A DNA stretch of 64,000 nucleotides from an uncultured bacterium. GTDB taxonomy: Bacteria > Hinthialibacterota > Hinthialibacteria > OLB16. The notes under the pieces are model-generated. The model was not told where the DNA came from. It was given only the letters and a program-made list of their open reading frames with translations, and searched no databases. The stretch spans positions 3,336 through 67,335 of the forward strand of contig CAYRBI010000008.1 in NCBI GenBank assembly GCA_964422415.1, read 5' to 3'. A program made the translations under genes and the position numbers. Positions 3,265-59,115 of the stretch are shown here, piece by piece. Each line of letters opens with the position of its first letter. Position 1 is the first letter of the stretch.

Positions 3265-3484
3265 TGTGTGTGCTTTCCCCACTGGAAAGTGAGGACTCTC
3301 CGCGGACGCGGAGCAGTCAAGAATCTCCGTCAGGAGAGACCGATGTCTCTTTGGCGGATGAAAATGGAATTCCAGTGGATAAAAATTGGACTACTACCGA
3401 AGGGGAAACCTAAGTTGATGGCGGGAATCAGGTTGTGCTCCCTTTCCATTAAGAGGGAAGAACTTGGGTAGGACACTCACCCTG

Positions 3485-41296: not shown

Positions 41297-44200
41297 ATGA
41301 ACCTGGAGGTTGTCATGCGTCGCTTGTTGCTTGTTTCTGTTTTCCTTTTTTCGTTGCCTCTTTCTCCTTGTTCCGCTTTGGATGATTGGCGCGAGTACGG
41401 TCCCCCTGGCGGGGCGATGCTCAGTCTGATCTCAGACAGCAGCCATGAAGTTTTCATCGCGGCAACATCCACCCAGGTTTACCGGAGTTATGACACTGGT
41501 TTGAACTGGGAAGCGCTCCCCAGTATGCCCGATGCCAGTGGGATCAAGGATGCGGTCCTGGTGGGAGATTCCGAATCCGGTCTGATGGTGTGCACCAACA
41601 CCAATGGGATCTATCGCTGGGATCCTTCCTCCCAATCCTGGTTGCTCAAGATCACTGGAATTCAATCTTCCTCTCCCTATGCCCTCCAGTTCTTTGATCT
41701 GAGCGTGGTGACTTCCACATCCACTCGCGTGTTTGTGGGATGCTCCACTGGTCTGTACTACAGCGATAACCGTGGCGACCAATGGTACAAGATCACTCTC
41801 CCTTACGAAAACACTTCACCCCAATACAAGATGGTCACCCAAGTGCAGGCCGCCCGGGACGGAAGCGTGTATGTCTACACCTACACCCCCATCCGGATTG
41901 AATCAGATCTGGTGACCGCCTCCTATTTCGTCATGAAACCCGGCCTTCCCTCCACCGCCCTCTCAGGCGCGATGATCTGGCCGAATCCCAATAACGCCAA
42001 TGAACTGGTGATGATCTTCAATGGGATCTACTACAGCACGGACCGTGGCGAGAATTGGTCCTCACCCAGCGCGGGACAGGTTCCTCCCTCGCCGGTGGCT
42101 GTGGATTGGCTGTATGGCAAGCCGACAGTTTTTGGGGTCACCTCCACTTGTGTCCTGAATCGCTCAACCCTGGCCTGGTCACGGCTCTGGTCCCGTTCCA
42201 TCCGGACCCAATACCGTGCGGTGGAACGTGATACCGTCTCCGGCCACCTGCTGATCGCCTCGCAAAGCCGTGGAGTCTGGCGCAGTAATGATATGGGGCA
42301 AACCTGGACCTATTCCTCCAACGGGATGAGCGCCTATGGCGCGGTCTATGCGGTGGGGGTAGATCCCGCCAACTCCTCGATCGTCTATGCCGGAATGCAG
42401 ACCGAGGGGGTGTGGCGGACCAAGGATGATGGAGCCACCTGGGAGGAACGCAACACCGGCTTCGATTCAGATCCAGCCTACAGCGTTTCAATCCGTTCGA
42501 TTGCAGTCGATCCGGTGCATACCAACCACCTGCTAGCGGGAACCGAAACCCAGGGTGGGACACCGGCTTGGCTCTATCAAAGCCAGGATAGCGGCCAGCA
42601 CTGGACCAAGGTCTCCACCGGTCCTACCGGGTTGGCCTACTGCATTTTCTTCGTACCCTCCAACCCCAGTGTGATCCTGGTGGGCACCGGAATGGATGGA
42701 ATCTGGCGCAGCCCGGATGATGGGGTGACCTGGTCGCGTGTGGCAGATAAGGAGGTCTACCGGAATGTCCTCGACTTCGCCCAGGAGAAAGGGGGACGGA
42801 TCTTCACCGCACTGATCGGTGGTTTTAATCCCACCAATGGCTACGGATACAGTGATAATACAGGGACCACCTGGAATGTGGTGGAGGAAAGCGCTTCCTG
42901 TTCTCTGGCGGCGGATCCAGTGCGTGCGGGACGCGTGATGCGCGGTACCGGCTGGTGGGATGCCGGCGCGGGTATGCTGTACACCTCTAGCAACGGGACC
43001 AAGTGGGATGCGGTCAACACGGGCCTCCCCACACGGGTCTATGGATATGACATGGCCGACAGCACCGTGGCTGATCCGAATCACTCGGGAACCTACTACA
43101 CCTTCCTTCCCAATAGTGGCGTCTTCGAAACTGAAAATGATGGAGCAAATTGGACCCAGGTGGGGACCCTGACCGAGGGGAATACCCTGGAGTTCTCTAC
43201 CCGCAAACAGGGAACCTTATTCGTAGGACGCGGATATGAGGGCATCTGGTATTACCAGACCGCCGAAGCGATGCCCACTCCAACTCCAAGTGTCTCGCCG
43301 ACACCGAATGTCACTCCCACCTACACGCCGCCTCCTTGGTTCCCGCCGATGGCCACTAAGACTCCAACGATTCCGGCACAGCCGAATGTGGGAGCTGCGG
43401 ATGATGCCACCTGGTTTTCACCCACCAATCCCAAAGCAGGCGAAAGTGTCTCTGTCGGATCCTTACTCTTCAACAATTCAACTACCGCTGTTTCGAATAT
43501 CCGTGTCGATTTCTATGTGGGAACCGATCTGAACAATCTTCCACTGCTTTCCACGGTCACTGTACCGTCACTGGCGGCGCGTTCACGCCTTCCAGTCCAA
43601 TCAGTATCCAATTTTCTGACCCCCACCGCTGGAACCTACTATGTGAAGGTCAAAATCGACCCACTCAATGCGGTCTCTGAATATGATGAGACCGACAACG
43701 AGGTCCAAACCGCCTTCTATGCACGTTTTGGAGGTGCCGATAAGACTCCCCCCACTGGTTCTATTCGTATTGATAGCGGTAGCCTGTTCACCTATGACAT
43801 GAATGTCCATCTGGACCTGAATACCACGGATACAGGCAGCGGAGTGGGTTACATGTATGTGACCGGGTGGGTGTATGACCCACGTTTCGGCGGCCTGGCC
43901 AAGTACTATGAGAGCGGTTGGATCGATTACCTTGCGAGCGCCAGTTTCCTGATTGAGGGAGGATACTTCGAAGCTCTCTCGGTGACATATGCCGATCTGG
44001 ATGAAAATGTCTCGGACACTTATTGGGCGGTGACCAACTATTACCCCACTGAATACACGGAATTCGTCTTCTGGGATGAGTCGCTGTATTACCCCATGTA
44101 TCTCACCACCGGGGCCAATGTCACCCTCACGGTCAACCATGTCTTTGGCGACAGCGACCTGTATGTGATCGCCCCTTCGACACCGGATGGCTACTACGAC

Positions 44201-44623
44201 TGGTCGAGTGTTCACGATGGCATCACCACGGAAAATATATCCTTCACCGCACCTGAAACCGGTGTTTATTGGACGGTCGTCTTTGGGTATGACTTCTCGG
44301 AGTACCGTCTGCTCTGCAGCGGAAGCATGGGATCAAAGGAGTTGGTAAAGACACCGTCGTTACTGGCCAAAGGAACCCGCCGTAGCCCTGATTTCAACCC
44401 ACCCCCGGTAGACACAGAGCTCCCGGAAAAGATTTTGATTCCTTCCTTCAGCGCGGATCTCTATCCAGATGGCACGGTTGACTACAAGGACCTTTTCAAA
44501 CTGTCGAGATTGTGGGGAAAGGCCATGGGCGATGCGGGTTATGATGCCCGCTTGGGGGGCGTTGATACAGACCACCGCATCGGAGGAACACATTTACTGC
44601 AATGGTTGGGAATACGGCGGTAA
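41297..44623 (+). CDS. large secreted BNR/Sortilin-type repeat protein with PT linker, CARDB-like and PPC-like domains and a dockerin-like C-terminus
   Basis: Signal peptide MRRLLLVSVFLFSLPLSPCSA. At least 9 SxDxGxxW-type repeats (YDTGLNW, DNRGDQW, TDRGENW, NDMGQTW, KDDGATW, QDSGQHW, PDDGVTW, DNTGTTW, ENDGANW). PTPTPSVSPTPNVTPTYTPPP linker. DLYPDGTVDYKDLFKL near the end. The upstream part of the 41075 ORF is rejected. Confidence 0.85.
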   Translation: MNLEVVMRRLLLVSVFLFSLPLSPCSALDDWREYGPPGGAMLSLISDSSHEVFIAATSTQVYRSYDTGLNWEALPSMPDASGIKDAVLVGDSESGLMVCTNTNGIYRWDPSSQSWLLKITGIQSSSPYALQFFDLSVVTSTSTRVFVGCSTGLYYSDNRGDQWYKITLPYENTSPQYKMVTQVQAARDGSVYVYTYTPIRIESDLVTASYFVMKPGLPSTALSGAMIWPNPNNANELVMIFNGIYYSTDRGENWSSPSAGQVPPSPVAVDWLYGKPTVFGVTSTCVLNRSTLAWSRLWSRSIRTQYRAVERDTVSGHLLIASQSRGVWRSNDMGQTWTYSSNGMSAYGAVYAVGVDPANSSIVYAGMQTEGVWRTKDDGATWEERNTGFDSDPAYSVSIRSIAVDPVHTNHLLAGTETQGGTPAWLYQSQDSGQHWTKVSTGPTGLAYCIFFVPSNPSVILVGTGMDGIWRSPDDGVTWSRVADKEVYRNVLDFAQEKGGRIFTALIGGFNPTNGYGYSDNTGTTWNVVEESASCSLAADPVRAGRVMRGTGWWDAGAGMLYTSSNGTKWDAVNTGLPTRVYGYDMADSTVADPNHSGTYYTFLPNSGVFETENDGANWTQVGTLTEGNTLEFSTRKQGTLFVGRGYEGIWYYQTAEAMPTPTPSVSPTPNVTPTYTPPPWFPPMATKTPTIPAQPNVGAADDATWFSPTNPKAGESVSVGSLLFNNSTTAVSNIRVDFYVGTDLNNLPLLSTVTVPSLAARSRLPVQSVSNFLTPTAGTYYVKVKIDPLNAVSEYDETDNEVQTAFYARFGGADKTPPTGSIRIDSGSLFTYDMNVHLDLNTTDTGSGVGYMYVTGWVYDPRFGGLAKYYESGWIDYLASASFLIEGGYFEALSVTYADLDENVSDTYWAVTNYYPTEYTEFVFWDESLYYPMYLTTGANVTLTVNHVFGDSDLYVIAPSTPDGYYDWSSVHDGITTENISFTAPETGVYWTVVFGYDFSEYRLLCSGSMGSKELVKTPSLLAKGTRRSPDFNPPPVDTELPEKILIPSFSADLYPDGTVDYKDLFKLSRLWGKAMGDAGYDARLGGVDTDHRIGGTHLLQWLGIRR

Positions 44624-44780
44624 GGGGCCGCTACAGACTGAACAACATTACATGAGAGAAGAACTCTTTTTGAAAATGCATATGGGATGAATCTTCACAA
44701 ACTGATTCCCCACACCTAGACTTGCCTAGGTCAAAGGAAATCGTCAACAGCCAGAGACGTGCGGCGAAGGATCTGGGACA

Positions 44781-45281
44781 ATGAAGATTGTCGGGGATTA
44801 TTTGCACCAAAAAGCACTGAAGCTTACGAATAACCCAGAAGAAATGGACCTCTTTGCAAGGAGTGCTTTCAACCGGTACTACTACGCTTGTTTTCATCTA
44901 GCCCGAAATCTGGTTGCCGACATTCATCCCACTTCTGTGGGAGCAAATCACAAACAATTTCATGAAACAATTCTAACCACAACTATCCAGAGCGAGATAA
45001 AGAAAATTGCGGAAAACCAGTTGAAGAAAAAAGTCATCGACAGATCGCACTTTTCCTCCATCGTATCAAGCTCGAAAAGATCACTCAGTCAACTTGAAGA
45101 TATACTCAGACGAGCATACTCGGTAAGGTGTATCGCCGACTATCATGGAGAGGAAGTGGTCTGCCTAGAAGGAGGAAACCTTACTCTTACAGGGAAGACA
45201 TTACACGAGGCCAGTATGTGGCCAAAACGGGCCGCCATATACTGCAAGGAAATTAAGAAGCAATGGGATGAAATAGGATGA
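44781..45281 (+). CDS. hypothetical HEPN-like protein, candidate effector of the retron-like system
   Basis: 166-aa helical ORF in the low-GC island. N-terminal FARSAFNRYYYACFHLARNLV and C-terminal LRRAYSVRCIADYHGEE resemble the two conserved HEPN helices, with an R-x5-H (R116..H122) candidate catalytic motif. Confidence 0.55.
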   Translation: MKIVGDYLHQKALKLTNNPEEMDLFARSAFNRYYYACFHLARNLVADIHPTSVGANHKQFHETILTTTIQSEIKKIAENQLKKKVIDRSHFSSIVSSSKRSLSQLEDILRRAYSVRCIADYHGEEVVCLEGGNLTLTGKTLHEASMWPKRAAIYCKEIKKQWDEIG

Positions 45282-45287
45282 AATAGG

Positions 45288-46055
45288 ATGAGACCTGAGT
45301 CAGAGGTAATCGAGACAGTTAGACAGGTCGTGAAGAAGTGGTTTCCACGAGTCTGGCGGCACGCCTCTGTATGGCTTATAGAGGATCGTCTTATCGTCGA
45401 TATACCGTTCCCGATCTCCCAAGAGAATAACAAAGGAACCCCTGTTACGGGGAGGCGGCTTGCCAACCTCAAGAATGCACTTGAGGCAGCCACCAACCTT
45501 CAAGTTACTCTTGTTTTGAAATCTCCAGAGAATCAGGGGGACCTGGAAAATGGGATAAATGCTCTTATAAACACCATTCAACCAGGAGCGATTGACCAAG
45601 TCCTTATATCATCTCCCCTCTCAAACACTGTCGATGTTATCATGACTGTCAATAGTGGAAGATCCACTCTGTCGTCTGGAGCATCCGAGAAAATCAAATC
45701 CGTTGTTCAACGGTGTATATCCTTGGCGGGGCTGGAAGTAGGATCTATACATATCATTGGTTTCCAGAAGGAACTACCAACCACTAGCCAAATTCTTGCC
45801 TCTCTCAAGACCATTCAACCAGCTCAGGCAGGAGATCTAGCGGCATGGTTAATTAACAAAGGGTTTGGTATTCCAAGAGAGAAGTGGGTTGAGTCTCAGA
45901 TGGATGCCCTTCGGAAGAAGGGGCTCGTAGCATCTTTGAAAACTAAATCCTACGTTCTAACACAATCCGGACTTGAAGCAGTTCCAGGTATCAAAGGCAG
46001 TGTTAAAAGCGATGTGGCTCGCGCACTTGCCATGCGTGGAAGGAAGTGGGTATGA
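45288..46055 (+). CDS. hypothetical protein with a C-terminal winged-helix-like domain
   Basis: 255-aa ORF starting 6 nt after the previous stop. The C-terminal ~70 aa (SQILASLKTIQPAQAGDLAAWLINKGFGIPREKWVESQMDALRKKGLVASLKTKSYVLTQSGLEAV) has a wHTH-like helix-turn-helix plus wing pattern. The N-terminal ~165 aa are unrecognised. Confidence 0.5.
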   Translation: MRPESEVIETVRQVVKKWFPRVWRHASVWLIEDRLIVDIPFPISQENNKGTPVTGRRLANLKNALEAATNLQVTLVLKSPENQGDLENGINALINTIQPGAIDQVLISSPLSNTVDVIMTVNSGRSTLSSGASEKIKSVVQRCISLAGLEVGSIHIIGFQKELPTTSQILASLKTIQPAQAGDLAAWLINKGFGIPREKWVESQMDALRKKGLVASLKTKSYVLTQSGLEAVPGIKGSVKSDVARALAMRGRKWV

Positions 46056-46063
46056 TAACCTCA

Positions 46064-46240
46064 GGAGTGGTGGAGTGGAGAATGCGAGGGGATGAATCAT
46101 CCCCGCAAAAGCGGTGGTTTCGGTTTGAAGGGCGCCGCCCGGATGGGAGTCGCTCCTTCGAATCAACTCCCATCCGGGCGGCTTCCTTTACGCAAGTCAA
46201 CGTGACTTGGCTGGATGCCAGATGATCGCTCCACCGCTCC
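46064..46240 (+). ncRNA. candidate retron msr/msd non-coding RNA
   Basis: 12-nt terminal inverted repeats ggagtggtggag (46064-46075) and ctccaccgctcc (46229-46240) pair with one G-U. A short hairpin lies at 46088-46094/46098-46104. A 17-bp perfect stem lies at 46134-46150/46166-46182. The whole region sits directly upstream of, and slightly overlaps, the RT gene. Confidence 0.5.
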
Positions 46241-47190
46241 TTGTTTCCTTCCCAGATGCTCAGTCTTTCCTCTCAGTACTAAACGAGGAGTGTAGAGTTC
46301 GCTGCTCTCAAGAAGTCATATATCACTCCTCTAGGAAACTGCCCCCGATTGTTTCAAAAAGATCTCTTGCTGTCCTTTTTGGGTACTCACCAAGATTTGT
46401 CGGGGCAATGTGTGTTCGACCTCAGAGGTATTACCGCCACTTCCTCATACCGAAGGGAAAAAAGTCTCGTAAGATTGACGCTCCCCGAACTTCACTAAAG
46501 GTTATTCAGACATGGTTCGGATACCATCTCTCACGTGCCATAGTCCTTCCAGATTGTGTCCATGGATTCGTTCCAGGAAGATCGACCACCTCAGCTGCCC
46601 ATGTACACTGTGGGGCTGAATGGGTGGTGACCCTCGACATTCAAGATTTCTTCCCTTCGACTGGTGAGAGTCACATCAGGGATTGTTTATTGGAACTTGG
46701 GTATAGCAATGAGGGTACGACTCTCATTCTACAACTTATGACTTTGGATGGTTATCTCCCGCAAGGGTCACCTGCGAGCCCAGTCCTCTCGAATCTTGCG
46801 TTCCAGCACTCAGACTGGGAAATTATACAGCTTTGTCAGAAATTCTGTATTCAATATACTCGGTATGCTGACGACCTCGTATTTTCAGGAAAAGGGCAAG
46901 TCCCGGACACGCTTGTTAATGATGTAACCAAGATTATTGAACGGAGAGGTTGGCGGATTGCGTCAAGCAAGACTCGAATCAGGCACCTGCCACAATCACT
47001 GAAGGTGTTAGGGCTATTGGTTCACGGAGCCATACCAAGGCTGCCAAAACGATACAGGAACCAACTTAGGGCAATGAAGCATCTACTTGACACCAAATCT
47101 TTGAGTGAACCAACACTAAAGGTATTCAAAGGGCACGTGGCATATGCCATGTCAACCTCACAAACCGGGAATGGGACAAGGAAGGGATGA
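46207..47190 (+). CDS. retron-type reverse transcriptase
   Basis: YYRHFLIPKGKKSRKIDAP, VTLDIQDFFPS, LPQGSPASPVLSNL, YTRYADDLVFSG (YADD), and VLGLLVHG at the retron VTG position. 327 aa with no maturase or endonuclease domain. The true start may be ATG 46222. Confidence 0.85.
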   Translation: MAGCQMIAPPLLVSFPDAQSFLSVLNEECRVRCSQEVIYHSSRKLPPIVSKRSLAVLFGYSPRFVGAMCVRPQRYYRHFLIPKGKKSRKIDAPRTSLKVIQTWFGYHLSRAIVLPDCVHGFVPGRSTTSAAHVHCGAEWVVTLDIQDFFPSTGESHIRDCLLELGYSNEGTTLILQLMTLDGYLPQGSPASPVLSNLAFQHSDWEIIQLCQKFCIQYTRYADDLVFSGKGQVPDTLVNDVTKIIERRGWRIASSKTRIRHLPQSLKVLGLLVHGAIPRLPKRYRNQLRAMKHLLDTKSLSEPTLKVFKGHVAYAMSTSQTGNGTRKG

Positions 47191-47567
47191 ACGAGTATTG
47201 TTGCCATTCTCTTTTTTTCCCTGCATCTGAATCTACCTCATGTAATTCTATACAACACTCTGTAGTGGGGGGCCGCTCCTACGAGCAGTCCCCCATTATA
47301 GATGGATTTTCTTCCGTCTCTCTCATTCCCGCCAATAATTCTGAAAGTCCAAAACCTCATACTTTTGACGCTCACCTTTTTGCGATTGCCCCAACAGTTC
47401 TAAAAGGTCACGTGCGTCGATCATGCCATCACCCACACCCACCGGCCAGACATCATAGTTGGAAGACGATGTGATTTGCGCAGATTCATGGTCGGCTTGA
47501 CTTAGCTCCACACTTTGTTTCGTTCATTCTTCCTTGACACCCCCCCTCTGGATGCTACTTTTCCCAC

Positions 47568-49739
47568 ATGAATCCCACACCCTGCCTGTTTGGTTTCGGA
47601 CTTCACAATCACCAGCCTGTCGGGAACTTCGAGTCCATCTTCGAGGAGGCTTATCAGAAGGCCTATCTCCCCTTCCTGGATGTCTTCGAGCAGCATGAGG
47701 GTATCCGGATCACACAGCACTTTACCGGCATCCTTCTGGATTGGTTCGAAAACCATCACCCGAAGTTCATAGACCGGATCGGGAAGTTGGTGGATGTAGG
47801 ACGCATCGAGCTGATGGGCGGAGGTTACTACGAGCCAATCTTGGTGATGTTGCCCAAGGGCGACAGCGGTGAGCAGCTGGAAGCCCTTAACGAAAGGATT
47901 CGTTCACGGTTCGGCCAGCGCCCCAAGGGGGCCTGGGTGGCCGAACGGATCTGGGAGCCCTCGTTGACCAGCCTGTACGCAGAGGCAGGTCTGGAGTATG
48001 TGGTTCTGGATGATGCTCACTTCAAAATGGCCGGGCTAAGAGAAGACCAGCTCACTGGTCCCTTCATGACCGAAGACCAGGGGTTAACCCTGACCGTCTT
48101 CCCCATCAGCCAGAAACTCCGCTACATCATTCCCTTCCACCAGGTTGAGGAGACGATTGAATACCTGAAATCTTTCCCGTCTGGCAAGGGGACACGCTGT
48201 GTCATCATGGCCGATGATGGTGAGAAATTCGGTATCTGGCCCGAGACCTACAAATCAGTGTATGAGGAGGAATGGCTGGAGGAGTTCTTCACCGCTCTGG
48301 AGAAGGAATCCAAATGGCTAGAGATGGTGACCTTCTCCGAGGCCCGTAATCGCTGTTCCTCACAGGGGTTGGTGTACCTGCCCACCGCTTCATACTCCGA
48401 GATGATGGACTGGGCTCTCCCCTGGGAAGAGGGACGTGCCATCGAGGATTTTCGTAAACATCTGCCGGAGAAGACCCGTCAGCGTTATGGACGATTCATC
48501 AAAGGCAGCTTCTGGCGCTCCTTCCTCACCAAGTACCGTGAAATTCAGCACCTTCACCGCAAGGTACTGTCAGTGAGCGAATCGATTCACAAACTGCCGG
48601 AGGATTCCCCCGCCAAGCAAGAGGCGCTCCGTTATCTATGGGCCGCTGAATGCAACTGCGGTTACTGGCATGGAGTCTTCGGCGGCATCTACCTCAACCA
48701 TATCCGCGCGGAGAACTACCACAACCTGATCCTGGCCGAGCAGGCTGTTCGTTCCGCCGGACAGAAAACCGGGCAGACCATCCATTTCCGCCATTGGGAC
48801 TTCTTCCGTGATGGTGGCGATGCTCTCGAAGTAACCACCCCCACCGCTCATCTCCTCTTCGATCTGGAGGATGATGGCTCGTTGGTGGAATGGGACTTCC
48901 TCCCCAAAGCTTGGAACCTGGTCAACACACTCTCGCGCCATCCAGAAACCTATCACCGTGACCTGCTTGAAATGGCCAATAAGCCCACCGAGGAGGGGCA
49001 TGCCGCCTCGATCCATGATCTCCACCGTACCAAGGAAAAGGGACTTGAACGCCTTCTGGTGTATGATCCTTACCGGCGGGGAGGAAATATACTTCACTTC
49101 CTGAAGCCAGGATTGGCGCTGGAGAAGTTCACCGCCAATCCCGCTTTGGATCTGCGCGAGAAACCCTCCGGGAAAGCCAAAGTACACTACGAGACCACCC
49201 CATCTGGGTGTGAAATCACTTTTTCCTCCGTGGAGAAGGTCAAGAACCACGCGGGAAGGATCTCCACTGTGGAGGTACAGCGCATCTGGACCTATGACTC
49301 CGTACGGGATGAGTGGATATTGGAGTTACGCTTACAAAACCAATCACTGGATGGAGTGACCTTCGATCTGGGGATGGAATTCGGCTGGTCGCTCAACGCG
49401 GGCGCCACCTATGACCGGTTTTACCGGATCGATGGCCAAGCCCCCGAGGACCCGAGCCTGGGAAGCGTAGGTGAAAGCTCTGGAGTAGGTTCAGTAAGCT
49501 TGACCGAAGATTGGTGGGGGATTCGGATCGAGTTTCAATTCGAGAAACGCGCCAAGGTATGGCGTTTCCCTATCGAGACCGTGTCAAGCTCGGAGGGTGG
49601 TTTTGAACGCACCTATCAGAGTAGTGTGGTCATTCCCTCCTGGCCGGTGACACTCACGCCGGGGGGTGATGTGGATGCGGTGTGGTCCACCCGGTTTCAT
49701 CTCAAGATACACAACCTTCCCCATGGGGGTGCTGCATGA
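47568..49739 (+). CDS. glycoside hydrolase family 57 alpha-glucan enzyme (amylase/4-alpha-glucanotransferase type)
   Basis: GH57 conserved regions: HNHQPVGNF, GRIELMGGGYYEPIL, WVAERIWEP (nucleophile Glu region), MADDGEKFG (acid/base Asp region). Confidence 0.85.
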   Translation: MNPTPCLFGFGLHNHQPVGNFESIFEEAYQKAYLPFLDVFEQHEGIRITQHFTGILLDWFENHHPKFIDRIGKLVDVGRIELMGGGYYEPILVMLPKGDSGEQLEALNERIRSRFGQRPKGAWVAERIWEPSLTSLYAEAGLEYVVLDDAHFKMAGLREDQLTGPFMTEDQGLTLTVFPISQKLRYIIPFHQVEETIEYLKSFPSGKGTRCVIMADDGEKFGIWPETYKSVYEEEWLEEFFTALEKESKWLEMVTFSEARNRCSSQGLVYLPTASYSEMMDWALPWEEGRAIEDFRKHLPEKTRQRYGRFIKGSFWRSFLTKYREIQHLHRKVLSVSESIHKLPEDSPAKQEALRYLWAAECNCGYWHGVFGGIYLNHIRAENYHNLILAEQAVRSAGQKTGQTIHFRHWDFFRDGGDALEVTTPTAHLLFDLEDDGSLVEWDFLPKAWNLVNTLSRHPETYHRDLLEMANKPTEEGHAASIHDLHRTKEKGLERLLVYDPYRRGGNILHFLKPGLALEKFTANPALDLREKPSGKAKVHYETTPSGCEITFSSVEKVKNHAGRISTVEVQRIWTYDSVRDEWILELRLQNQSLDGVTFDLGMEFGWSLNAGATYDRFYRIDGQAPEDPSLGSVGESSGVGSVSLTEDWWGIRIEFQFEKRAKVWRFPIETVSSSEGGFERTYQSSVVIPSWPVTLTPGGDVDAVWSTRFHLKIHNLPHGGAA

Positions 49740-51276: not shown

Positions 51277-52494
51277 TTATCCTTTACGGCTATTGTCATG
51301 TGAAACGAATGATTCCGCCATCCGCCGCCGGCGTCCGCCCTGCCCTACCCCGACCTCACGTCCAATCGCGGCCAGACGGTTCTTGAGGCACTCAGCACAG
51401 ATGATAGCGCTTTCATAAATGCAGGCTTTGTCTGGATAAATCTCATAGAGCACGCGGTACTTGGAGGGAGTCAGATTGGGCATGACCACATTCGCGCCAC
51501 AGGCCAAGCCTTTCTCGCGCCCCTCGGCCTTGTCGAGGGTGGCCAAGGCGGTGGTACTGGGGATGTTGGCCTCGGGACACACCAGCCGCGCCAGAGCCAC
51601 AACCTTGCAGGTCATGGTCACTGTGTTGGGCACCTGATCCGGTCCCAGAGATGATTCATCGTGAATGGCCGGCCTTCCAAAAATTGGAAGTTGCCGGGGC
51701 ACCGTAGATTCACGCTGCCGCGGGAACGACGGCTCCCCAAGGATACCGCCCGTTTCATTAAGAACTAAGCCTAGCTCACCCAGAGGGGTATCCGGGTGCC
51801 GCAGGAATGGCCCCATGCCAATCATGTCCAGGTCGAGGTCCCGGAAGGTCAGAATATCCTCCGCTAGGGACTCATAGGTCTGACCAGGAATTCCGACCAT
51901 CACCCCGCTGCCCACCTCATACCCTAGTTCACGCAAAAAACGCAGGATCATCATCCGGTCCGGAGCCCCAGCGGGTGTTGGATGGATACGCTCATACAAG
52001 GCGCGGTCCGAGGTCTCGAAACGCAGGAGGTAACGATTCGCACCAGCCTCTTTCCAGAGGTGGAGTTCGGACTCTGTCCTTTCACCCAGGCTGAGAGTCA
52101 CCGCGAGAGGCGTATTGGCCTTGATCCAGCGTACTACCTCCGCCATCCACTCCGCTGAAATTCCCGGGTCCTCGCCGGCTTGGAGTACAACGGTTCCGTA
52201 TCCCAGATCGACCGCGGTTCGCGCACAGTCCTGGATCTCCTCCATGCTCAGCCGGTAGCGTTCCAATCCACGGTGTCCCGCGCGCAATCCGCAATAAGCA
52301 CACTGACGTACACAGTGGTTGGAGATCTCAACCAAACCTCTCAGGTGGACCGCATCGCCCACATGGGCCTGGCGGACCGAATCCGCCCAGGACCACAACC
52401 GTTGTAACTCGGTTTCGTTCTCCTCATGCAGCCAGGCGAGTATGTCCTCGCGAGTAAGAGAGCGTGTTGACATCTCCATTTTTGTAAAGCTCAT
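51277..52494 (-). CDS. hydE: [FeFe]-hydrogenase maturase HydE (radical SAM) with a ~45-50-aa internal insertion
   Basis: CVRQCAYC CX3CX2C motif and BioB/HydE-like blocks (GIPGQT, GPFLRHPDTPL, NIPSTTAL, CGANVVMPN). Located in the hydG-hydF-hydE cluster. Confidence 0.8.
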   Translation of the reverse strand: MSFTKMEMSTRSLTREDILAWLHEENETELQRLWSWADSVRQAHVGDAVHLRGLVEISNHCVRQCAYCGLRAGHRGLERYRLSMEEIQDCARTAVDLGYGTVVLQAGEDPGISAEWMAEVVRWIKANTPLAVTLSLGERTESELHLWKEAGANRYLLRFETSDRALYERIHPTPAGAPDRMMILRFLRELGYEVGSGVMVGIPGQTYESLAEDILTFRDLDLDMIGMGPFLRHPDTPLGELGLVLNETGGILGEPSFPRQRESTVPRQLPIFGRPAIHDESSLGPDQVPNTVTMTCKVVALARLVCPEANIPSTTALATLDKAEGREKGLACGANVVMPNLTPSKYRVLYEIYPDKACIYESAIICAECLKNRLAAIGREVGVGQGGRRRRMAESFVSHDNSRKG

Positions 52495-53741
52495 GAATGG
52501 CTTCCCTTCATCCCCATGTGGGCTTGATAGAGATCCCGCGCCGCCGGGAAGGGTTGTAGAGCCCGCTCGAAGATCCCCAGGCTGTATGCGATCACAAGAC
52601 CATAATTTGAAATAGGGACACCCACCTCACGGCAGTGCAGAATCCGCGCCAGCATCTCGCGGCGGTTCAACATACACGCCCCGCAATGAATCACAAGTTT
52701 GTATTCCGCCAGGTCATCCGGGAAATCATGGCCTTGCACATGGGTGAACTCGAGCTTACCACCCACATATTGGGTCAACCATCTTGGGATCTTCACCCGC
52801 CCGATATCCTCGCCAATGGGATGATGCGAACAGGCCTCGGATACTAGAACCCGGTCCCCGGTCTGCAAGCTGTCCACCGCCAAGGCTCCCTCAACCTGAG
52901 TGAGGAGATCGCCCTTGAAGCGTGAGAACAGGATCGAGAAACTGGTCACGGGCACCCCAGGTGGAGTATCCGCAACCACCTTGAGGAAAGCCTGGGAATC
53001 GGTTACCACCAAATCCGGTGGTACCGTGAAACGGCCGAGGATATGACGCAGTTCCCGTTCCTTGACCACGGCGCAACAGGCATCGTTATCCAACAGATCA
53101 CGGATGGCCTGTACCTGTGGAAGGATGAGCCGGCCCTTGGGGGCCTCTTTGTCGATGGGCACCACCAGCACCGCCAACCCGCCGGGGGGAACCAAGTCTC
53201 CCAGGATCGAGGGGTTGTTCAAAAGCTCCGCCGGAACACTTTCTAAAAGAGCTTGACGGAGATCTGGAATTCCACGCCCCGTATTGGCGGAGGTATAGAC
53301 TACCCGGACTTCTTGGTTCTGGAGACGATTGATGAGATTCGCGGCCGGTTGTCCGAGATCGCATTTATTAAAAACCACGATGGTGGCGATACCCGCCTCT
53401 AAAAACACCTTGAGCAGGTTCTCCTCGAAGGTGCCCCACTGATCCGCCACAGCCACCAGCAGGGCCACCTCGGTCCGCTCGATGACCTTACGGGTCTTCT
53501 GCACCCGCATCTCACCGAGTGCCCCCTCATCATCGATTCCCGCCGTGTCGATGAACAAGACCGGACCGAGCGGAAGCAATTCCATCGGTTTCTCTACCGG
53601 GTCGGTGGTGGTCCCGGCCTGCTCGGAGACAATGGACACCTCCTGGCGGGTGATGGCATTGAGCAGGCTCGATTTCCCCACATTGCGCCGTCCAAAGATA
53701 CCGATATGCAGCCGCATCGAACGCGGAGTGGTTTGCATCAT
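52491..53741 (-). CDS. hydF: [FeFe]-hydrogenase maturation GTPase HydF
   Basis: G1 GRRNVGKSS, G3 DTAG, G4 NKCD. C-terminal cluster motif CSHH ... HCGAC. 4-nt overlap with hydE. Confidence 0.9.
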   Translation of the reverse strand: MMQTTPRSMRLHIGIFGRRNVGKSSLLNAITRQEVSIVSEQAGTTTDPVEKPMELLPLGPVLFIDTAGIDDEGALGEMRVQKTRKVIERTEVALLVAVADQWGTFEENLLKVFLEAGIATIVVFNKCDLGQPAANLINRLQNQEVRVVYTSANTGRGIPDLRQALLESVPAELLNNPSILGDLVPPGGLAVLVVPIDKEAPKGRLILPQVQAIRDLLDNDACCAVVKERELRHILGRFTVPPDLVVTDSQAFLKVVADTPPGVPVTSFSILFSRFKGDLLTQVEGALAVDSLQTGDRVLVSEACSHHPIGEDIGRVKIPRWLTQYVGGKLEFTHVQGHDFPDDLAEYKLVIHCGACMLNRREMLARILHCREVGVPISNYGLVIAYSLGIFERALQPFPAARDLYQAHMGMKGSHS

Positions 53742-53783
53742 GTCTTATTCCTCATATATCCAGGCTACGCGGTGATACCCAAC

Positions 53784-55286
53784 TCACTCTCCAGCCCCCC
53801 TCTCCCATGAAGCGAGAGGAGTATCCTCTCCCTCTGCTTGTGGGAGAGGGGGGCTGGAGGGGTGAGGTGGGACAGGTGTGCCCAAACGGCAGACCGCCTC
53901 AGGAGAAATCAAGTTCTCAAACTCCTTTTGCGTCATCAGGCCCTTTTCCAGGACCACTTCGCGGATTGTTTTCTTCATCTTGCCTGCTTCCCACGCCACC
54001 TCGCAAGCTTGTTCATACCCCAGCACCGGCAGCAGGGCAGTTACAGCTGCGGTGGAACTATCCACATGAGCTCCACAACGGCCCTCGTTGGCTTCGATCC
54101 CCTCGACACACAACCGCCGCAGAATACCGCAGCCCCGTGCCAGGAGCTCCAGACTCTCCAGAAGACATTCGGCGATCAACGGCATGAAGGGATTCAATTC
54201 AAGGTTGCCAGAGGCACAGGCCAAAGTAAGGGTTGCATCATTGCCGATGACCTTCATCGCAACCTGGCTGGCCGCCTCGGGGATCACCGGGTTGACTTTG
54301 CCTGGCATGATCGAGGAGCCAGCCTGCCGCGCGGGGAGCTGGATCTCCCCCAAGCCTGCATCAGGCCCCGAGGAAAGCAGCCGCAGATCGGTACAGATTT
54401 TTATCAGGGAGGCCGCGCAGGCCTTCAGAATCCCGGAGACCTCCACAAAGACATCCGCATTCTGGGTGGCGTCGATCAAATTCTCCGCACGGGCAAATCC
54501 GATTCCAGTGATTTCCCGGAGGTGGTCCACCACACGGAAGATGTACTCACGAGGCGCGGTAAGGCCGGTCCCAATGGCGGTTCCCCCAAGGTTGACCACC
54601 CGCAGCCGCTCCTCGCATTTGTAGATCCGCCAGCGATCCCGGTTCAATGCTTCAGCATACGCGGACATTGTACGCCCCAACGTGGTGAGGACCGCATCCT
54701 GCATCTCGGTCCGTCCCACCTTGACCACATGGGCGAAACGCTTCTCGGCGGATTGAAAGGCTTCCTGGAGCAGTACGGTCTGTTCTTCGAGGTTACGGAC
54801 CAGGCGGATTGCGGCCAGTTTGAGCGCCGTAGGATAGGTGTCATTCGTGGACTGGTGAAGATTGAGATCATCGAGGGGTGAAACCCGTTGATATCGACCA
54901 TGGGGTTCACCAAGTAATTCTAGTGCGCGGTTGGCCAGCACCTCGTTAACATTCATGTTGGTACTAGTCCCCGCTCCGCCTTGAAGAGCATCCACGGTAA
55001 CATGCTCATCCAACACCCCCTCGGCCATCTCCTGGCAGGCGCGCAGGATGGCATCCACTTTGGATGGATCATCGGGCCACACGCCCAGGTCCCGGTTGGT
55101 CACCGCACAAGCCAGCTTCACCGTTCCGTAGGCGTGGACCAACTCGCGGTGGACATACCGCCGCGCCAGGGGGAAATTCTCCAACGCACGGAGTGTGTGG
55201 ATCCCATGGAGAGCCCCCGCTGGAACCAAGATCTCTCCGAGAAGGTCGCGTTCGATACGGAAAGGGGTGTCATCGTGGGGTGACAT
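53784..55286 (-). CDS. aspA: aspartate ammonia-lyase / class II fumarase family protein
   Basis: Signature GSSIMPGKVNPVIPE plus TNMNVNEVLANRA and HQSTNDTYPTA. The last ~25 codons run into palindromic repeat 53791-53857. Confidence 0.9.
   Translation of the reverse strand: MSPHDDTPFRIERDLLGEILVPAGALHGIHTLRALENFPLARRYVHRELVHAYGTVKLACAVTNRDLGVWPDDPSKVDAILRACQEMAEGVLDEHVTVDALQGGAGTSTNMNVNEVLANRALELLGEPHGRYQRVSPLDDLNLHQSTNDTYPTALKLAAIRLVRNLEEQTVLLQEAFQSAEKRFAHVVKVGRTEMQDAVLTTLGRTMSAYAEALNRDRWRIYKCEERLRVVNLGGTAIGTGLTAPREYIFRVVDHLREITGIGFARAENLIDATQNADVFVEVSGILKACAASLIKICTDLRLLSSGPDAGLGEIQLPARQAGSSIMPGKVNPVIPEAASQVAMKVIGNDATLTLACASGNLELNPFMPLIAECLLESLELLARGCGILRRLCVEGIEANEGRCGAHVDSSTAAVTALLPVLGYEQACEVAWEAGKMKKTIREVVLEKGLMTQKEFENLISPEAVCRLGTPVPPHPSSPPLPQAEGEDTPLASWERGAGE
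53791..53857. repeat. nested GC-rich palindrome (family B) overlapping the aspA-like 3' end
   Basis: ccagcccccctctccca (53791-53807) pairs with tgggagaggggggctgg (53841-53857). An inner gagagga/tcctctc hairpin lies between the arms. Confidence 0.8.
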
Positions 55287-55449
55287 ATGAGGTTGATTTT
55301 ACGATAAATCCGAAGACAAGGCAGTGGTTGGTTTCTCAACTCCCCCCAAAAAAAGGGGGCTTACATACAGGCCAATTCTGTTGTTGAAAAGGTTGAGGCC
55401 AACACTTACACTTTCCCAAAAGACCTTCAGAAACGAGGCACACCCAAAA

Positions 55450-55842
55450 ATGAGTGCCGAAAGAAATCCCATTCCCCGGTCTTTCCATCTCACTCCTGAT
55501 GCGCGCCTATCCTCCCTGGAAAATCTACAACCAAGATGGGATGGGGAAGACGCCGAAGTTCCCAATTCCTATTCGATGGATCTCGCGGGATGTGTGCTTA
55601 CACATCTTGACGAGAGAAGGATTCATCCCACCGCCATCATGCCCTGCATTGACGGAGGGGTGAGTATCGCCATCCATGTTGAGAAGCAAAAGATCCTTAT
55701 CGAGTGTTACAACACCAAAGTCCTGGCGGTATCTCTTGTCTCAACAGACCTTCAGATGAATGACAATTTCTCTCTTACAGATCCCACGGAAGCAGAGGTT
55801 TCCGAGGGCATCCAGCGTATTCATGATTTCCTTGTGATCTGA
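55450..55842 (+). CDS. hypothetical protein on the opposite strand inside the hyd cluster
   Basis: 130-aa ORF from an internal ATG (MSAERNPIPRS...). No recognisable motifs. It fills the gap between the aspA-like gene and hydG. Confidence 0.35.
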   Translation: MSAERNPIPRSFHLTPDARLSSLENLQPRWDGEDAEVPNSYSMDLAGCVLTHLDERRIHPTAIMPCIDGGVSIAIHVEKQKILIECYNTKVLAVSLVSTDLQMNDNFSLTDPTEAEVSEGIQRIHDFLVI

Positions 55843-55880
55843 TGGACCAGGGGCGGGGGTCTCCCCCCGCCCCACTTCTC

Positions 55881-57296
55881 CTAAACGTAAACATCTCTCT
55901 TCCCCGCCTTGACCTGCGCAAGGAGTTTCTCGGAGGTGATCCGGGTTTTTTCCGGCATGGTGGCCACCGACTCGGCGATGCACTTTTCACCAGCCCGTTT
56001 TGTTTCCGGATCGGCATAGTCCTCAAGATACTCCTGAAAGGTTGAGACGGCGTTGGGATCGCAGTGATCCTTGATCTCGCCGGGTTTAGCAAGATCCATA
56101 AAATCCCCACCAGTACGTCCCAAGCGGTAGCAGGCAGTGCAGAACGAGGGGATGTACCCCAGTGATGAGATGTCACGGATGACCTCGGGCAGAGAACGGT
56201 GATCGCCGAGGGAGAACTGGGCTTCATCGGCACGGTCTTCCCCTTCCGCATATCCGCCTGGATTGGTCCGGCTCCCCGCCGAAATTTGCGACACCCCCAA
56301 TGCGAAGGTTTCACGCCGGATGTTAGCGGTCTCGCGGGTCGACATGATGATACCCGTATATGGCACGGTCAGCCGCAGGATCGCCACGATCTTGCGGAAG
56401 TCAATGTCAGATACCGGATGCGGCGGATGCGTGGCGATATCCGATCCGGTTGCGGGCTCCATGCGTGGAACACTGATTGTATGCGGTCCCACACCGAAGA
56501 CCTGTTCCAGATGCTGGATATGCTGCATCAGCGCGAGAATCTCAAAACGCCAATCGAACAAGCCGAAGAGGATCCCCACGCCAACATCATCGATTCCCGC
56601 CTGCATGGCACGGTCCATCCCGGTCACACGCCAATCGTAATCGGCCTTCTTCCCTTTCAGGTGGACCCGTTGGTAGGTCTCCCGGTGATAGGTCTCCTGG
56701 AAGAGCTGGAAGGTTCCAATCTTGGCGGCCTTGAGACGCCGGAAATCCTCGACACTCATGGGCGCCAGATTAGCGTTGACACGGCGGATCTCACCATGCT
56801 CATGCTTGGTGGCGTAGACGGTAGCGATTGAATTGAGAATATAATCGAGACCCTCCGCCGGGTAGGACTCACCCGCCACCACCAAGATCCGCTTGTGCCC
56901 TTGATCGATGAGGAACCGCACCTCGCGAGCAATCTCCTCCTGGTTCAACGCACGCCGGTGGACTTCTCTGTTCCTGGCGCGGAAGGCGCAATAGGAGCAC
57001 TCATTACTACACAGGTTGGAGATGTAGAGAGGTGCGAACAACACCAGCCTACGGCCATAAATGAGCTCCTTGACCTCCTTGGCGGTACGAAACATCTCAC
57101 CCAGAAGATCTGGATCACTCACCGCCATTAACAACGCCGTTTCCTCTTGCGATAGACCCTTGAGATCCCGCGCTTTCGTGAGAATCTCCTGGACCCGGTG
57201 CTCATCGGGGCGCTTATTGGCGTTGAGGACCGACTCGATCCTGCGCTCATCGATAAAGGTGCACTTATACTCTTCAATATCCACTGCCATTCTCAT
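55881..57296 (-). CDS. hydG: [FeFe]-hydrogenase maturase HydG (radical SAM tyrosine lyase)
   Basis: CSNECSYC radical SAM motif and C-terminal CTAC-x22-C auxiliary cluster motif. Confidence 0.9.
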   Translation of the reverse strand: MRMAVDIEEYKCTFIDERRIESVLNANKRPDEHRVQEILTKARDLKGLSQEETALLMAVSDPDLLGEMFRTAKEVKELIYGRRLVLFAPLYISNLCSNECSYCAFRARNREVHRRALNQEEIAREVRFLIDQGHKRILVVAGESYPAEGLDYILNSIATVYATKHEHGEIRRVNANLAPMSVEDFRRLKAAKIGTFQLFQETYHRETYQRVHLKGKKADYDWRVTGMDRAMQAGIDDVGVGILFGLFDWRFEILALMQHIQHLEQVFGVGPHTISVPRMEPATGSDIATHPPHPVSDIDFRKIVAILRLTVPYTGIIMSTRETANIRRETFALGVSQISAGSRTNPGGYAEGEDRADEAQFSLGDHRSLPEVIRDISSLGYIPSFCTACYRLGRTGGDFMDLAKPGEIKDHCDPNAVSTFQEYLEDYADPETKRAGEKCIAESVATMPEKTRITSEKLLAQVKAGKRDVYV

Positions 57297-57320
57297 TTCT
57301 TCCGGTTACTTCAACCGGTC

Positions 57321-59108
57321 CTACGGTACAAGTTCGTTATACCGGCCTCGTTTTACATACTCCGTATGCAATAGTTCATGGGACTTATGCCCCAAGGGCT
57401 CTCCAAGAAATTCCTCGTAGAGCTGCTGGATGAAGGGATTCTCATGTGACATGCGCTTCTCTTTGCCAGCATCTTCGGCGTAGATGGCACGCATACGCGC
57501 TTGGCGGATCGCCTGGTTGGTGGGTTTGGGTTGGCCACCACCGCTCAAGCAACCACCGGGGCATCCCATCACCTCAATGAAATGATACTGTGGAACCACA
57601 CCGGCCGCCACTTGGTGCATCAACATGCTCGCGCCGGCCAATCCACTGGTGACCGCCACGCGGACAGTGAAACCCTCCAGGAAGGCATACTCCGGCTTGG
57701 CGCCCTCGATCTTCAATTCCGCTGTCTTGACCTGCTCAAGTCCGCGAACCGGGGTGATATCCAGATGCTCGAAGGGCACTGGACGCCCTGTAACCAGTTC
57801 GTAAACCGTGCGGATGGCGGCCTCCATCACTCCGCCGGTGGCTCCAAAGATATCGGCGGCGCCGGTCGAGAAACCCAACGGCTCATCAAACTTGCCATCC
57901 GGAAGCTCCTGGAAGTCGATACCCGCTTCTTTGATCATCCGGGCGAGTTCACGTGTGGTGATTGAGACATCCACTGTCGGTAACTCATTATGGAACATCT
58001 CGGGCCGGGTGACCTCGAACTTCTTCGCCGTGCAGGGCATGATCGAGACCACGAAGATATCTTTGGGATCCACCCCAATCTTCTCGGCATAGTAGGTCTT
58101 CAACAGCGCCCCCAACATCATCTGGGGTGACTTACAGGTGGACAGGTGGTCAAGCAGATCCGGGTATTCGTGTTCGATATTCTTGATCCAGCCCGGCGAG
58201 CAGGAGGTAATCATGGGCAGGACCGCATTGCCACCGGTGAGGGCTTCCTTGACCCGGTGCAGGAATTCAGAGCCTTCCTCCATGATGGTGAGATCCGCGG
58301 CGAAGTTGGTGTCGAAGACATCATCAAATCCCATCTCACGCAGCGCGGTCACCATCTTGCCCGTCACTAAAGTGCCCGCTGGATAGCCGAACTCCTCACC
58401 CAAAGCCGCGCGGATAGCGGGTGCGGTCTGGACGATCACACGCTTGCTGGGATCATGTAACGCCGTCCATACCACGTTGGTGTTGTCCTGAGCCATTAAA
58501 GCCCCCACTGGACAAACCAGGACACACTGTCCGCAATTGGCACAGTTGGCGGTGTTCAGGGTCAGGCCCTCCGCCGGTCCAACCATGGACTTAAAGCCAC
58601 GGTGTTGAACGTTAAGCACTCCCACCCCCTGGATCTGGTTACACACCGTCACGCAACGGCGGCAGAGGATACACTTGGAACTGTCGCGGATGATCGAGGG
58701 GCTGGAATCATCCACCAGGTCCTTCGATTTCTCACCCTCAAAACGGTATTCGGAGATATGGATCAACTCGCCCAAACGTTGAAACTCGCAGTTCTGGTTG
58801 CGGTAGCAGCTCAGGCAGTTGCGGGGATGGTCGGAGAGCATCAGCTCATACAGAATCTTGCGGGCGGTATGGATTCTGGCCGTGTTCGTCTGGACCTTCA
58901 TCCCCTCGCGGACCGTTACCATGCACGAGGCTTGGAGATTCCTTGCACCCTCGATCTCAACGACACAGATCCGGCAGGCGCCGGCTTGGTGGACACCCTC
59001 CAGATAGCAGAGGGAAGGGATCAGGATATTGTTCTGTTTAGCCGCTTCAAGCACGGAAATCCCCGGCTCGACGGTCACTTCTTTTCCATTAATCGTCAGG
59101 GTTACCAT
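57321..59108 (-). CDS. hydA: [FeFe]-hydrogenase catalytic subunit HydA (multi-cluster, bifurcating-type architecture)
   Basis: N-terminal 2Fe-2S ferredoxin-like domain and ferredoxin-type 4Fe-4S motifs (CILCRRCVTVC, CANCGQCVLVCP). H-domain L2 MPCTAKKFE and L3 EVMGCPGGCLSGGGQP. L1 reads TSCSPGW. Start placed at ATG 59108 after GGAGG. Confidence 0.9.
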   Translation of the reverse strand: MVTLTINGKEVTVEPGISVLEAAKQNNILIPSLCYLEGVHQAGACRICVVEIEGARNLQASCMVTVREGMKVQTNTARIHTARKILYELMLSDHPRNCLSCYRNQNCEFQRLGELIHISEYRFEGEKSKDLVDDSSPSIIRDSSKCILCRRCVTVCNQIQGVGVLNVQHRGFKSMVGPAEGLTLNTANCANCGQCVLVCPVGALMAQDNTNVVWTALHDPSKRVIVQTAPAIRAALGEEFGYPAGTLVTGKMVTALREMGFDDVFDTNFAADLTIMEEGSEFLHRVKEALTGGNAVLPMITSCSPGWIKNIEHEYPDLLDHLSTCKSPQMMLGALLKTYYAEKIGVDPKDIFVVSIMPCTAKKFEVTRPEMFHNELPTVDVSITTRELARMIKEAGIDFQELPDGKFDEPLGFSTGAADIFGATGGVMEAAIRTVYELVTGRPVPFEHLDITPVRGLEQVKTAELKIEGAKPEYAFLEGFTVRVAVTSGLAGASMLMHQVAAGVVPQYHFIEVMGCPGGCLSGGGQPKPTNQAIRQARMRAIYAEDAGKEKRMSHENPFIQQLYEEFLGEPLGHKSHELLHTEYVKRGRYNELVP

Positions 59109-59115
59109 GGTTTGA

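Follow-up and report, generated by a model that had tools for sequence, protein, structure and literature searches.

The question raised by this locus is whether a compact cassette of three genes and a structured non-coding RNA (ncRNA), located at positions 44,781–47,190 of a 64,000-nucleotide stretch of DNA, represents a new anti-phage system or a divergent member of a known one. The stretch, called the window below, comes from an uncultured bacterium (GenBank assembly GCA_964422415.1, contig CAYRBI010000008.1, forward-strand positions 3,336 to 67,335). An earlier note put the cassette forward as a "candidate undescribed defence system" consisting of a HEPN-like protein, a winged helix-turn-helix (wHTH) protein, an ncRNA and a retron-type reverse transcriptase (RT). 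The analysis described here assigns the locus, with high confidence, to the intact type IX retrons, which are four-part abortive-infection anti-phage systems. It is a divergent new example of a catalogued and structurally solved system type, not a new system.

The PADLOC library holds the dedicated models HEPN_IX, HTH_IX and RT_IX, and these match the three open reading frames (ORFs) approximately end to end, with E-values of 1.1e-41, 5.4e-44 and 1.1e-118, respectively. The locus can be detected with existing models for defence annotation. In the PDB sequence set, the best solved-structure match for each window protein is the corresponding chain of entry 36ht (Retron-Kva2). The ORFs are co-oriented on the plus strand where the earlier note had placed them, and the order HEPN, winged-helix (WH) protein, ncRNA, RT on one strand is that of type IX. 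According to Table 1 of Mestre et al. 2020 (PMC7736814), type IX comprises a HEPN protein, a protein with a C-terminal wHTH, the ncRNA and the RT. Two genes are located 5' of the ncRNA-RT module, and the first encodes a HEPN-domain protein which lacks the histidine of the Rx4-6H motif and has a conserved histidine elsewhere (PMC7736814). Three preprints of July 2026 (bioRxiv 10.64898/2026.07.14.738597, 10.64898/2026.07.14.737667 and PMC13405049) report cryo-electron microscopy structures and mechanisms of the type IX retrons Kva2, Sen3 and Yin1. Chance is far exceeded by the scores obtained (PADLOC E-values from 1e-41 to 1e-118, and about 1e-26 for the covariance model of the ncRNA). Sequence comparison assigns all four parts to the family and points to conserved catalytic residues, DNA-contact residues and RNA structure; production of multicopy single-stranded DNA (msDNA), toxicity, trigger and phenotype in the host would follow by homology to Kva2, Sen3 and Yin1.

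The RT is matched by RT_IX with 394 bits over profile positions 2–313 of 317, and the next PADLOC type, RT_III-A, reaches 221 bits. The E-value against the Retron-Kva2 RT (PDB 36ht_A) is 5.9e-68, against Ec86 3e-21, and against Pfam RVT_1 5.5e-17. The best matches are retron RTs throughout, and the retron reading of the earlier note is borne out. The RT motifs quoted there (YYRHFLIPKGKKSRKIDAP, VTLDIQDFFPS, LPQGSPASPVLSNL, YTRYADDLVFSG and VLGLLVHG) are all found in the translation, and YADD (residues 215–218, 46864–46875) is invariant in the RT alignment. The alignment with Kva2 starts at Kva2 residue 6 and includes the N-terminal domain; the type-specific N-terminal extension, which contacts the WH protein in Kva2, is kept in the window RT. 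The start of the gene needs correction. It had been read from TTG 46207 (46207–47190, 327 aa), and ATG 46222, giving 322 aa, is most likely the true start, because RT_IX aligns from residue 7 of the 327-aa form, the protein collection contains the 322-aa form, and the homologues all begin with M-N/K-x-P-P-L-L.

The HEPN protein (ORF1) is aligned over residues 1–166 with positions 1–160 of the 161 in HEPN_IX, and its E-value against the Retron-Kva2 HEPN (PDB 36ht_I) is 6.2e-11. A family profile searched against PDB matches 36ht_I at 8.4e-42 and no other entry, in agreement with the published statement that type IX HEPN resembles other HEPN proteins at the fold level only. Alignments were made from syntenic ORFs of related loci (n = 34 and n = 30), and the invariant positions are V4, R27, S28, N31, R32, Y34, Y35, H57, R116, D120, Y121, A144 and W147. 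H57 and R116, present in 34 of 34 sequences, correspond in the pairwise alignment to Kva2 H64 on helix 3 and R122 on helix 4, mutation of either of which abolishes toxicity, RNA cleavage and defence (2026 preprints). The YYY motif is also kept (residues 33–35, Kva2 Y40–42).

The earlier note took an R-x5-H motif (RCIADYH, residues 116–122) as the active site of this protein, and this assignment has to be replaced: the alignment points to H57 and R116 as the catalytic pair. H122 is aligned with Kva2 E128, and the family position is occupied by E (13), K (5), H (4) or Q (3). Since this position varies while H57 and R116 are invariant, the R-x5-H match is a coincidence. The Rx4-6H motif is absent in type IX HEPN (PMC7736814 and the Kva2 papers), and a canonical Rx4-6H RNase was rejected as an identity for ORF1: R116-x5-H122 is present, but its histidine is not conserved in the family. 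A weaker suggestion is that the histidine at R116+6, found in the window and, among the 33 further family sequences compared, in 3, may partly restore a canonical Rx5H site and alter the substrate range.

The WH protein (ORF2) begins 6 nt past ORF1. The winged helix at its C-terminus, proposed earlier, agrees with the HTH_IX match, and residues 33–249 are matched to the Retron-Kva2 WH protein (PDB 36ht_B, 4.7e-11). Its D206, R209 and K210 are equivalent to Kva2 D197, R200 and K201, which read the tip of the msDNA hairpin (2026 preprints). A 10-bp tandem duplication is located at the HEPN stop and WH start (45266–45285, two copies of GGATGAAATA and a partial third, GGATGAg). A single copy would give an ATGA overlap of the two genes, and in most other type IX loci HEPN and WH do overlap; the duplication alters neither protein and gives rise to the 6-nt spacer.

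The fourth part is the ncRNA, which includes msr and msd. The region 46058–46245 folds with a minimum free energy of -103.5 kcal/mol (z = -7.5), and none of 200 shuffled sequences folds as well. The intergenic region between the WH and RT genes aligns well in 30 sequences, for which RNAalifold gives 33 pairs, 28 of them with compensatory changes. Covariation was tested with a hand-completed five-helix structure on a MAFFT alignment fitted to no structure, and the controls were obtained by sliding the pairing partners by 1–3 columns. In the five-helix structure 93% of cells are paired (33–44% in the slid controls) and the covariation score is 0.59 (controls 0.07–0.12); 31 of the 38 pairs vary at both positions, and no shuffle out of 500 is as good. 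Trained on 28 other type IX loci, with the window left out, a covariance model finds a sole strong match in the 64 kb, at 46056–46244 on the plus strand (110.4 bits, E 9e-27), in which all five helices are kept. The model recovers every type IX locus searched except the truncated L033 and L036, including about ten not used in its building, and matches none of 12 loci with non-IX RTs. An Rfam search of 43–49 kb at a permissive threshold yielded only sub-threshold microRNA-like hairpins, which fall on the msd stem; no match to a retron msr family was obtained. Of the structured 150-nt non-coding stretch described previously, the structure is confirmed; its extent is not, as the element is about 180 nt long and overlaps the RT start.

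The layout of the ncRNA could be read in register with Kva2. Stem-loop 1 has a 17-nt core (46088–46104) followed by a 10-nt linker, and in Kva2 this msr stem-loop is bound by the RT thumb (2026 preprints). The msd is placed at about 46115–46191 because of this register (stem-loop 1 of 17 nt, linker of 10 nt, msd of 76 nt). The complement of 46155–46161 in the hairpin tip is TCGAAGG, which agrees with the Yin1 msDNA-tip nucleotides dT26–dG32. In stem-loop 3, about 25 loci share an AC[G]-stem-[G]CU frame, and their stems covary. Its G-to-G spacing is 18 nt, the same as between Kva2 G121 and G139, described as the opposing and the branching guanosine, respectively (Hayashi et al. 2026). G46210 is likely to be the branching G on these grounds. 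Carabias et al. 2026 describe the type IX ncRNA as canonical, and for this reason G46078, directly 3' of arm a1, remains the alternative, canonical branch point.

Stem-loop 3 of the window is GC-containing (CAAGUCA/UGACUUG), unlike the AU-rich one of the gammaproteobacterial loci compared (Kva2 itself is not among them). AU-rich forms occur in L019-L021, L023, L028, L030, L032, L035 and L043 (Shewanella, Alteromonas, Methylococcales), where a simple search does not bring out the AC[G]-stem-[G]CU frame; the branching G may therefore not have one uniform position throughout type IX. The a2 arm (46227–46241) coincides with RT codons 2–7, which encode the conserved N-terminus M-x-x-P-P-L-L, and the invariant Pro-Pro codons (CCN CCN) are paired with a conserved GGNGG in a1. 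As a2 doubles as RT codons, its bases are constrained by both the RNA structure and the protein.

Related loci were collected by protein search, which gives 512 RT relatives at E <= 1e-30, and by a scan of one genome per species, which gives 80 loci. An exact look-up of the window RT among assemblies gave no record. By tblastn, at an RT identity of at least 39%, 30 loci have HEPN, WH, a gap of about 160 nt and RT at fixed spacing. The remaining loci of this RT clade (about 10) are mostly cut by contig ends or decayed in appearance, and none of the 40 loci with an RT identity of 38% or less has HEPN or WH. The hosts belong to Verrucomicrobiota, Planctomycetota, Acidobacteriota, Nitrospirota, Bacteroidota, Spirochaetota, Desulfobacterota and, in many cases, Pseudomonadota.

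Two of the related loci differ in content. In L026 (3442–4984, Nitrosomonas metagenome-assembled genome, MAG) a type IX ncRNA (156.6 bits) and an RT of 42% identity occur without HEPN or WH; threonine synthase and a 123-aa ORF resembling IS200/IS605 TnpA are located upstream. L026 looks like a type IX retron that is orphaned or decayed, and its effectors were possibly lost via an insertion sequence. In L038 (2565–4922, Planctomycetia MAG) the HEPN match covers residues 1–64, the best RT piece covers 119–308 and the ncRNA scores 79 bits. The translated HEPN region diverges past about residue 110, and the locus may be a decaying copy or contain an assembly frameshift.

By homology to Retron-Kva2, Sen3 and Yin1, the following mechanism could be proposed for the locus. 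The RT would bind the ncRNA and use the 2'-OH of a conserved guanosine for priming; the predicted guanosine is G46210, at the foot of stem-loop 3 on its 3' side. About 77 nt, from 46191 back to about 46115, would be copied into an msDNA in which a long DNA hairpin predominates. The WH protein, with two KH-like domains and the C-terminal winged helix, would grip the TCGAAGG tip via D206, R209 and K210 and connect the RT-msDNA module with a dimer of HEPN. The composite HEPN site, formed by H57 and R116 of both protomers, would be occluded in a higher-order assembly, in which the RT-msDNA module, together with the WH protein, serves as the antitoxin. A phage nuclease or DNA-binding protein could then cleave or remodel the msDNA and break the assembly, and the freed HEPN RNase would cut tRNA anticodon loops and rRNA, so that translation stops and infection is aborted. 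The earlier note had suggested a HEPN-like toxic effector restrained by the RT-msDNA complex and a winged-helix protein which binds msDNA. Both roles have been demonstrated experimentally in the homologous Kva2, Sen3 and Yin1 and presumably apply here.

Several points weigh against the type IX assignment or against the details transferred with it. The locus is known here from its sequence, and the identity of the HEPN and WH proteins is low (E about 1e-11 versus Kva2, about 30–35% to the nearest relatives). The window departs from the family at three otherwise near-invariant positions of HEPN (L39H, P61H and P123G). Single-sequence AlphaFold2 prediction of the HEPN ORF gives a mean predicted local distance difference test score (pLDDT) of 45, and the fold of the protein would be that of the solved Kva2 HEPN by homology. 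In the WH protein K199 and E202 stand in place of Kva2 D190 and N193, and S216 replaces the stacking arginine of Sen3 (R207; R209 in Yin1). The preprints differ on the trigger (an exonuclease, a PD-(D/E)XK nuclease or the T5 D5 DNA-binding protein), on the geometry of the assembly (sheet, ring or asymmetric particle) and on the ncRNA topology. The transferred mechanistic details are provisional because of this disagreement.

If the substitutions reflected decay, the locus could be an inactive relic, either a silent acquired cassette or one in which only a HEPN-WH toxin-antitoxin pair is left. Such a reading would accommodate an isolated insertion without other defence genes nearby (no PADLOC match was obtained among 10 large neighbouring ORFs), as well as a position downstream of a gene unrelated to it and the lack of a convincing own promoter, the promoter and terminator scan giving counts no higher than in shuffled sequence. 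Decayed relatives such as L026, without HEPN and WH, do exist. However, the three ORFs are of full length relative to the profiles with no frameshift or stop, the catalytic residues are all kept, and the ncRNA retains five helices at 110 bits. A relic is very improbable.

A new retron subtype or undescribed system, in which a retron RT is combined with uncatalogued HEPN and wHTH effectors, is less probable still, to the point of being barely credible. In Pfam and NCBIfam neither ORF1 nor ORF2 has a significant family match, and only the generic RT is recognised; general annotation would leave the pair as "hypothetical", and this is the reason why it looked novel. Against this stand the HEPN_IX and HTH_IX matches (1e-41 and 5e-44) in PADLOC, the listing of the identical pair as type IX by Mestre et al. 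2020, the solved homologous complex (PDB 36ht) and the dozens of loci with the same gene order and ncRNA. The system has been described as type IX since 2020 and is represented by PADLOC models and by 36ht. Nor is it the "new or very rare subtype" that was supposed, given the 512 RT relatives and the 30 loci with the full gene order. The locus falls within an already catalogued retron type (PADLOC, PMC7736814), an outcome which the earlier note had itself set against its proposal.

The chance that the RT is not a retron RT at all, but one of a group II intron, a diversity-generating retroelement (DGR) or the unknown-group, abortive-infection or defence-associated (UG/Abi/DRT) classes with unrelated neighbours, is negligible: the similarity in NCBIfam to TIGR04416 (65 bits, cut-off 300), Drt2 (44, cut-off 390) and Drt3a (29, cut-off 200; Drt4 gives 10 against 450) is of the weak kind that all prokaryotic RTs show, the protein ends just past the thumb without a maturase or endonuclease domain, no Rfam match to a group II intron or other family occurs in 43000–49000, no template/variable repeat pair is located nearby, and the best matches in PADLOC and PDB are all retron RTs. 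The group II intron, DGR and DRT/UG candidates were rejected on sub-cut-off scores and on the lack of intron RNA and of such a repeat pair. The earlier statement that the gene has no maturase, endonuclease or ribozyme context is upheld by the same observations.

Among known systems, the type IX retron of the window is closest to Retron-Kva2 of Klebsiella variicola (PDB 36ht; Hayashi et al. 2026, Hibshman et al. 2026), which has the same four parts in the same order. The two share H57/R116 and YYY of HEPN (H64/R122 in Kva2), D206/R209/K210 of WH (D197/R200/K201), a YADD RT with the N-terminal domain, and the ncRNA layout with a 17-nt stem-loop 1 core, a 10-nt linker, an msd of about 76–77 nt and an 18-nt G-stem-G stem-loop 3. 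In contrast to Kva2, the host is an uncultured Candidatus Hinthialibacterota-like bacterium and not an enterobacterium, the sequences are far diverged (accessory proteins at E about 1e-11, RT at 6e-68), the HEPN and WH genes do not overlap, and HEPN has the extra histidine at R116+6. Retrons Sen3 and Yin1 (Salmonella and Yersinia; Carabias et al. 2026) have the same architecture and conserved D/R/K contact residues of the HTH. The tip read by this domain (dT26, dG28, dA29, dA30, dG31 and dG32) corresponds to TCGAAGG; the difference lies in the stacking arginine mentioned above.

More distant likenesses are found in two other systems. Retron-Eco1 (Ec86, type II-A) also has a YADD RT, a long msDNA hairpin on which a higher-order complex is built, and an effector whose HTH is related; domain 3 of the Kva2 WH protein resembles the Eco1 effector HTH (Hayashi et al. 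2026). However, the Eco1 effector is a nucleoside deoxyribosyltransferase-like N-glycosidase instead of a HEPN RNase, its RT is distant (79 bits, versus 233 bits for Kva2) and its branching G is canonical. HEPN-MNT toxin-antitoxin systems are similar in having a dimeric HEPN RNase toxin which cuts tRNA or rRNA and is inactivated by its partner, and both structure preprints name HEPN-MNT as the closest structural neighbour of type IX HEPN. They differ in that no sequence similarity is detectable (the family profile matches only 36ht in PDB), in the Rx4-6H motif, which is unconserved in the type IX family, and in the means of neutralisation, which in type IX is steric occlusion in the RT-msDNA-WH assembly and not AMPylation.

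The cassette is a horizontally acquired insertion between a stop codon and a terminator, and it carries the four retron parts only. Its extent of 2,645 bp follows from the break and resumption of homology and from the GGGGCCGCT repeats in comparison with the contigs of two close relatives, L090 and L089. Nucleotide homology to both stops at 44621, within the upstream gene's stop codon (44621–44623). By junction alignment, homology to L089 resumes at about 47259; by blastn, it resumes at 47311 (L089, He_PIG 3' end) and at 47519/47529 (L089/L090, GH57 promoter). In L090 the site is empty and the GH57 gene follows the sortilin/CARDB/PPC gene after 112 nt (L090 3788–3899). In L089 a minus-strand He_PIG gene of 1312 aa lies between the sortilin/CARDB/PPC and GH57 genes, and the site is at 5702–5794. 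Both GGGGCCGCT copies have their counterpart in the terminator hairpin of the uninserted site in L089, namely in its 5' arm. The GC content of the cassette is 0.47 (trough about 0.46–0.47), compared with a window mean of 0.55.

The empty site was found via protein search and the contigs of relatives; a metagenome scan for it with the GH57 neighbour gave only relatives of 37% identity or less. BLAST of the cassette and its non-coding ends against the 80 loci revealed no conserved ends and no close DNA relative. The window has no tRNA genes and no significant long repeats. The 9-mer GGGGCCGCT occurs 5 times in the window (0.86 expected) and may belong to a recurrent terminator-like or repetitive extragenic palindromic (REP)-like element. 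Retron Ec107 reportedly replaces a palindromic intergenic sequence in E. coli, and the insertion of the cassette recalls that case. No mobility gene is present in the cassette. Were the repeat a target-site duplication, type IX cassettes could be mobilised by a defined hairpin-targeting mechanism, in trans or even RT-dependent, a speculation to which only a small probability is given.

A remnant of the He_PIG 3' end is located at 47311–47469, and a minus-strand ORF of 62 aa at 47323–47511; the He_PIG gene is absent in L090. The dockerin-like tail of the 62-aa ORF (GDGMIDARDLLELL) resembles the C-terminus of an upstream secreted protein of 1182 aa. Evidently, genes turn over often at this intergenic site.

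The rest of the window is ordinary chromosome, with genes for PNPase, ThiC, CheA, MCP, NifS, GlnA, a GH57 amylase and an [FeFe]-hydrogenase with HydE/F/G. The hydrogenase, the HydE, HydF and HydG maturase genes and a lyase of the aspartase/fumarase class occupy 51277–59129. PNPase (997–3282) is 86% identical to that of a Candidatus Hinthialibacteria MAG and 87–94% identical to some further PNPases, and identity drops to about 60% across other phyla. The host probably belongs to the candidate phylum Hinthialibacterota and is probably anaerobic or fermentative.

Table 1. Coordinates of the type IX retron, its parts and its insertion site in the window.
Feature	Position	Strand	Evidence
HEPN_IX effector RNase, 166 aa	44781..45281	+	PADLOC HEPN_IX, PDB 36ht_I
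HEPN catalytic H57	44949-44951	+	invariant in family
HEPN catalytic R116	45126-45128	+	invariant in family
HEPN non-conserved H122	45144-45146	+	family alignment
WH (KH-KH-wHTH) protein, 255 aa, putative msDNA-binding bridge and co-antitoxin	45288..46055	+	PADLOC HTH_IX, PDB 36ht_B
Retron ncRNA (msr/msd), about 180 nt	46063..46241	+	covariance model, fold, covariation
Arm a1	46063-46077	+	pairs with a2
Arm a2	46227-46241	+	pairs with a1; inside first RT codons
Stem-loop 1 (msr)	46083..46107	+	helices 2 and 3, 94-97% of cells paired, two-sided changes
Predicted msd template, about 77 nt	46115..46191	+	register with Kva2
Long msd hairpin, arms	46128-46150, 46166-46188	+	17 pairs, 16 with compensatory changes
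Conserved hairpin tip CTCCTTCGAA	46153-46162	+	alignment
Stem-loop 3, 46193-46199 paired with 46203-46209	46192..46210	+	covarying stems (helix 5), Kva2 spacing
G46192, opposing G; G46210, predicted branching/priming G	46192, 46210	+	AC[G]-stem-[G]CU frame
Type IX retron RT, 322 aa from ATG 46222	46222..47190	+	PADLOC RT_IX, PDB 36ht_A, Pfam RVT_1
Inserted cassette, whole retron unit, 2,645 bp	44624..47268	.	homology breaks versus L090 and L089; GC
Left 9-bp direct repeat GGGGCCGCT	44624..44632	+	junction alignment
Right 9-bp direct repeat GGGGCCGCT, in displaced terminator hairpin 47267-47294	47269..47277	+	junction alignment
Promoter-like site TTCACA-17-TAGACT, 5' of HEPN gene, weak candidate	44694..44722	+	promoter scan
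Promoter-like site TTGCCA-18-TATGAT, candidate ncRNA-RT promoter, ends 7 nt before a1	46027..46056	+	position suggestive

The type, the parts and the mechanism of this retron have already been described, and little is added by it to retron biology as such. The apparent Rx5H motif of its HEPN protein is a trap for motif-based reading, and the comparison with the empty site provides unusually clean boundaries for a minimal retron cassette of 2.65 kb. The covariation supports a G-stem-G third stem-loop outside Enterobacteria and bears on the dispute among the preprints over the branching G. With this locus, type IX reaches an uncultured lineage that branches deeply and is probably Candidatus Hinthialibacterota, and the conservation there of the catalytic and DNA-contact residues, together with the ncRNA architecture, supports the generality of the Kva2/Yin1 mechanism.

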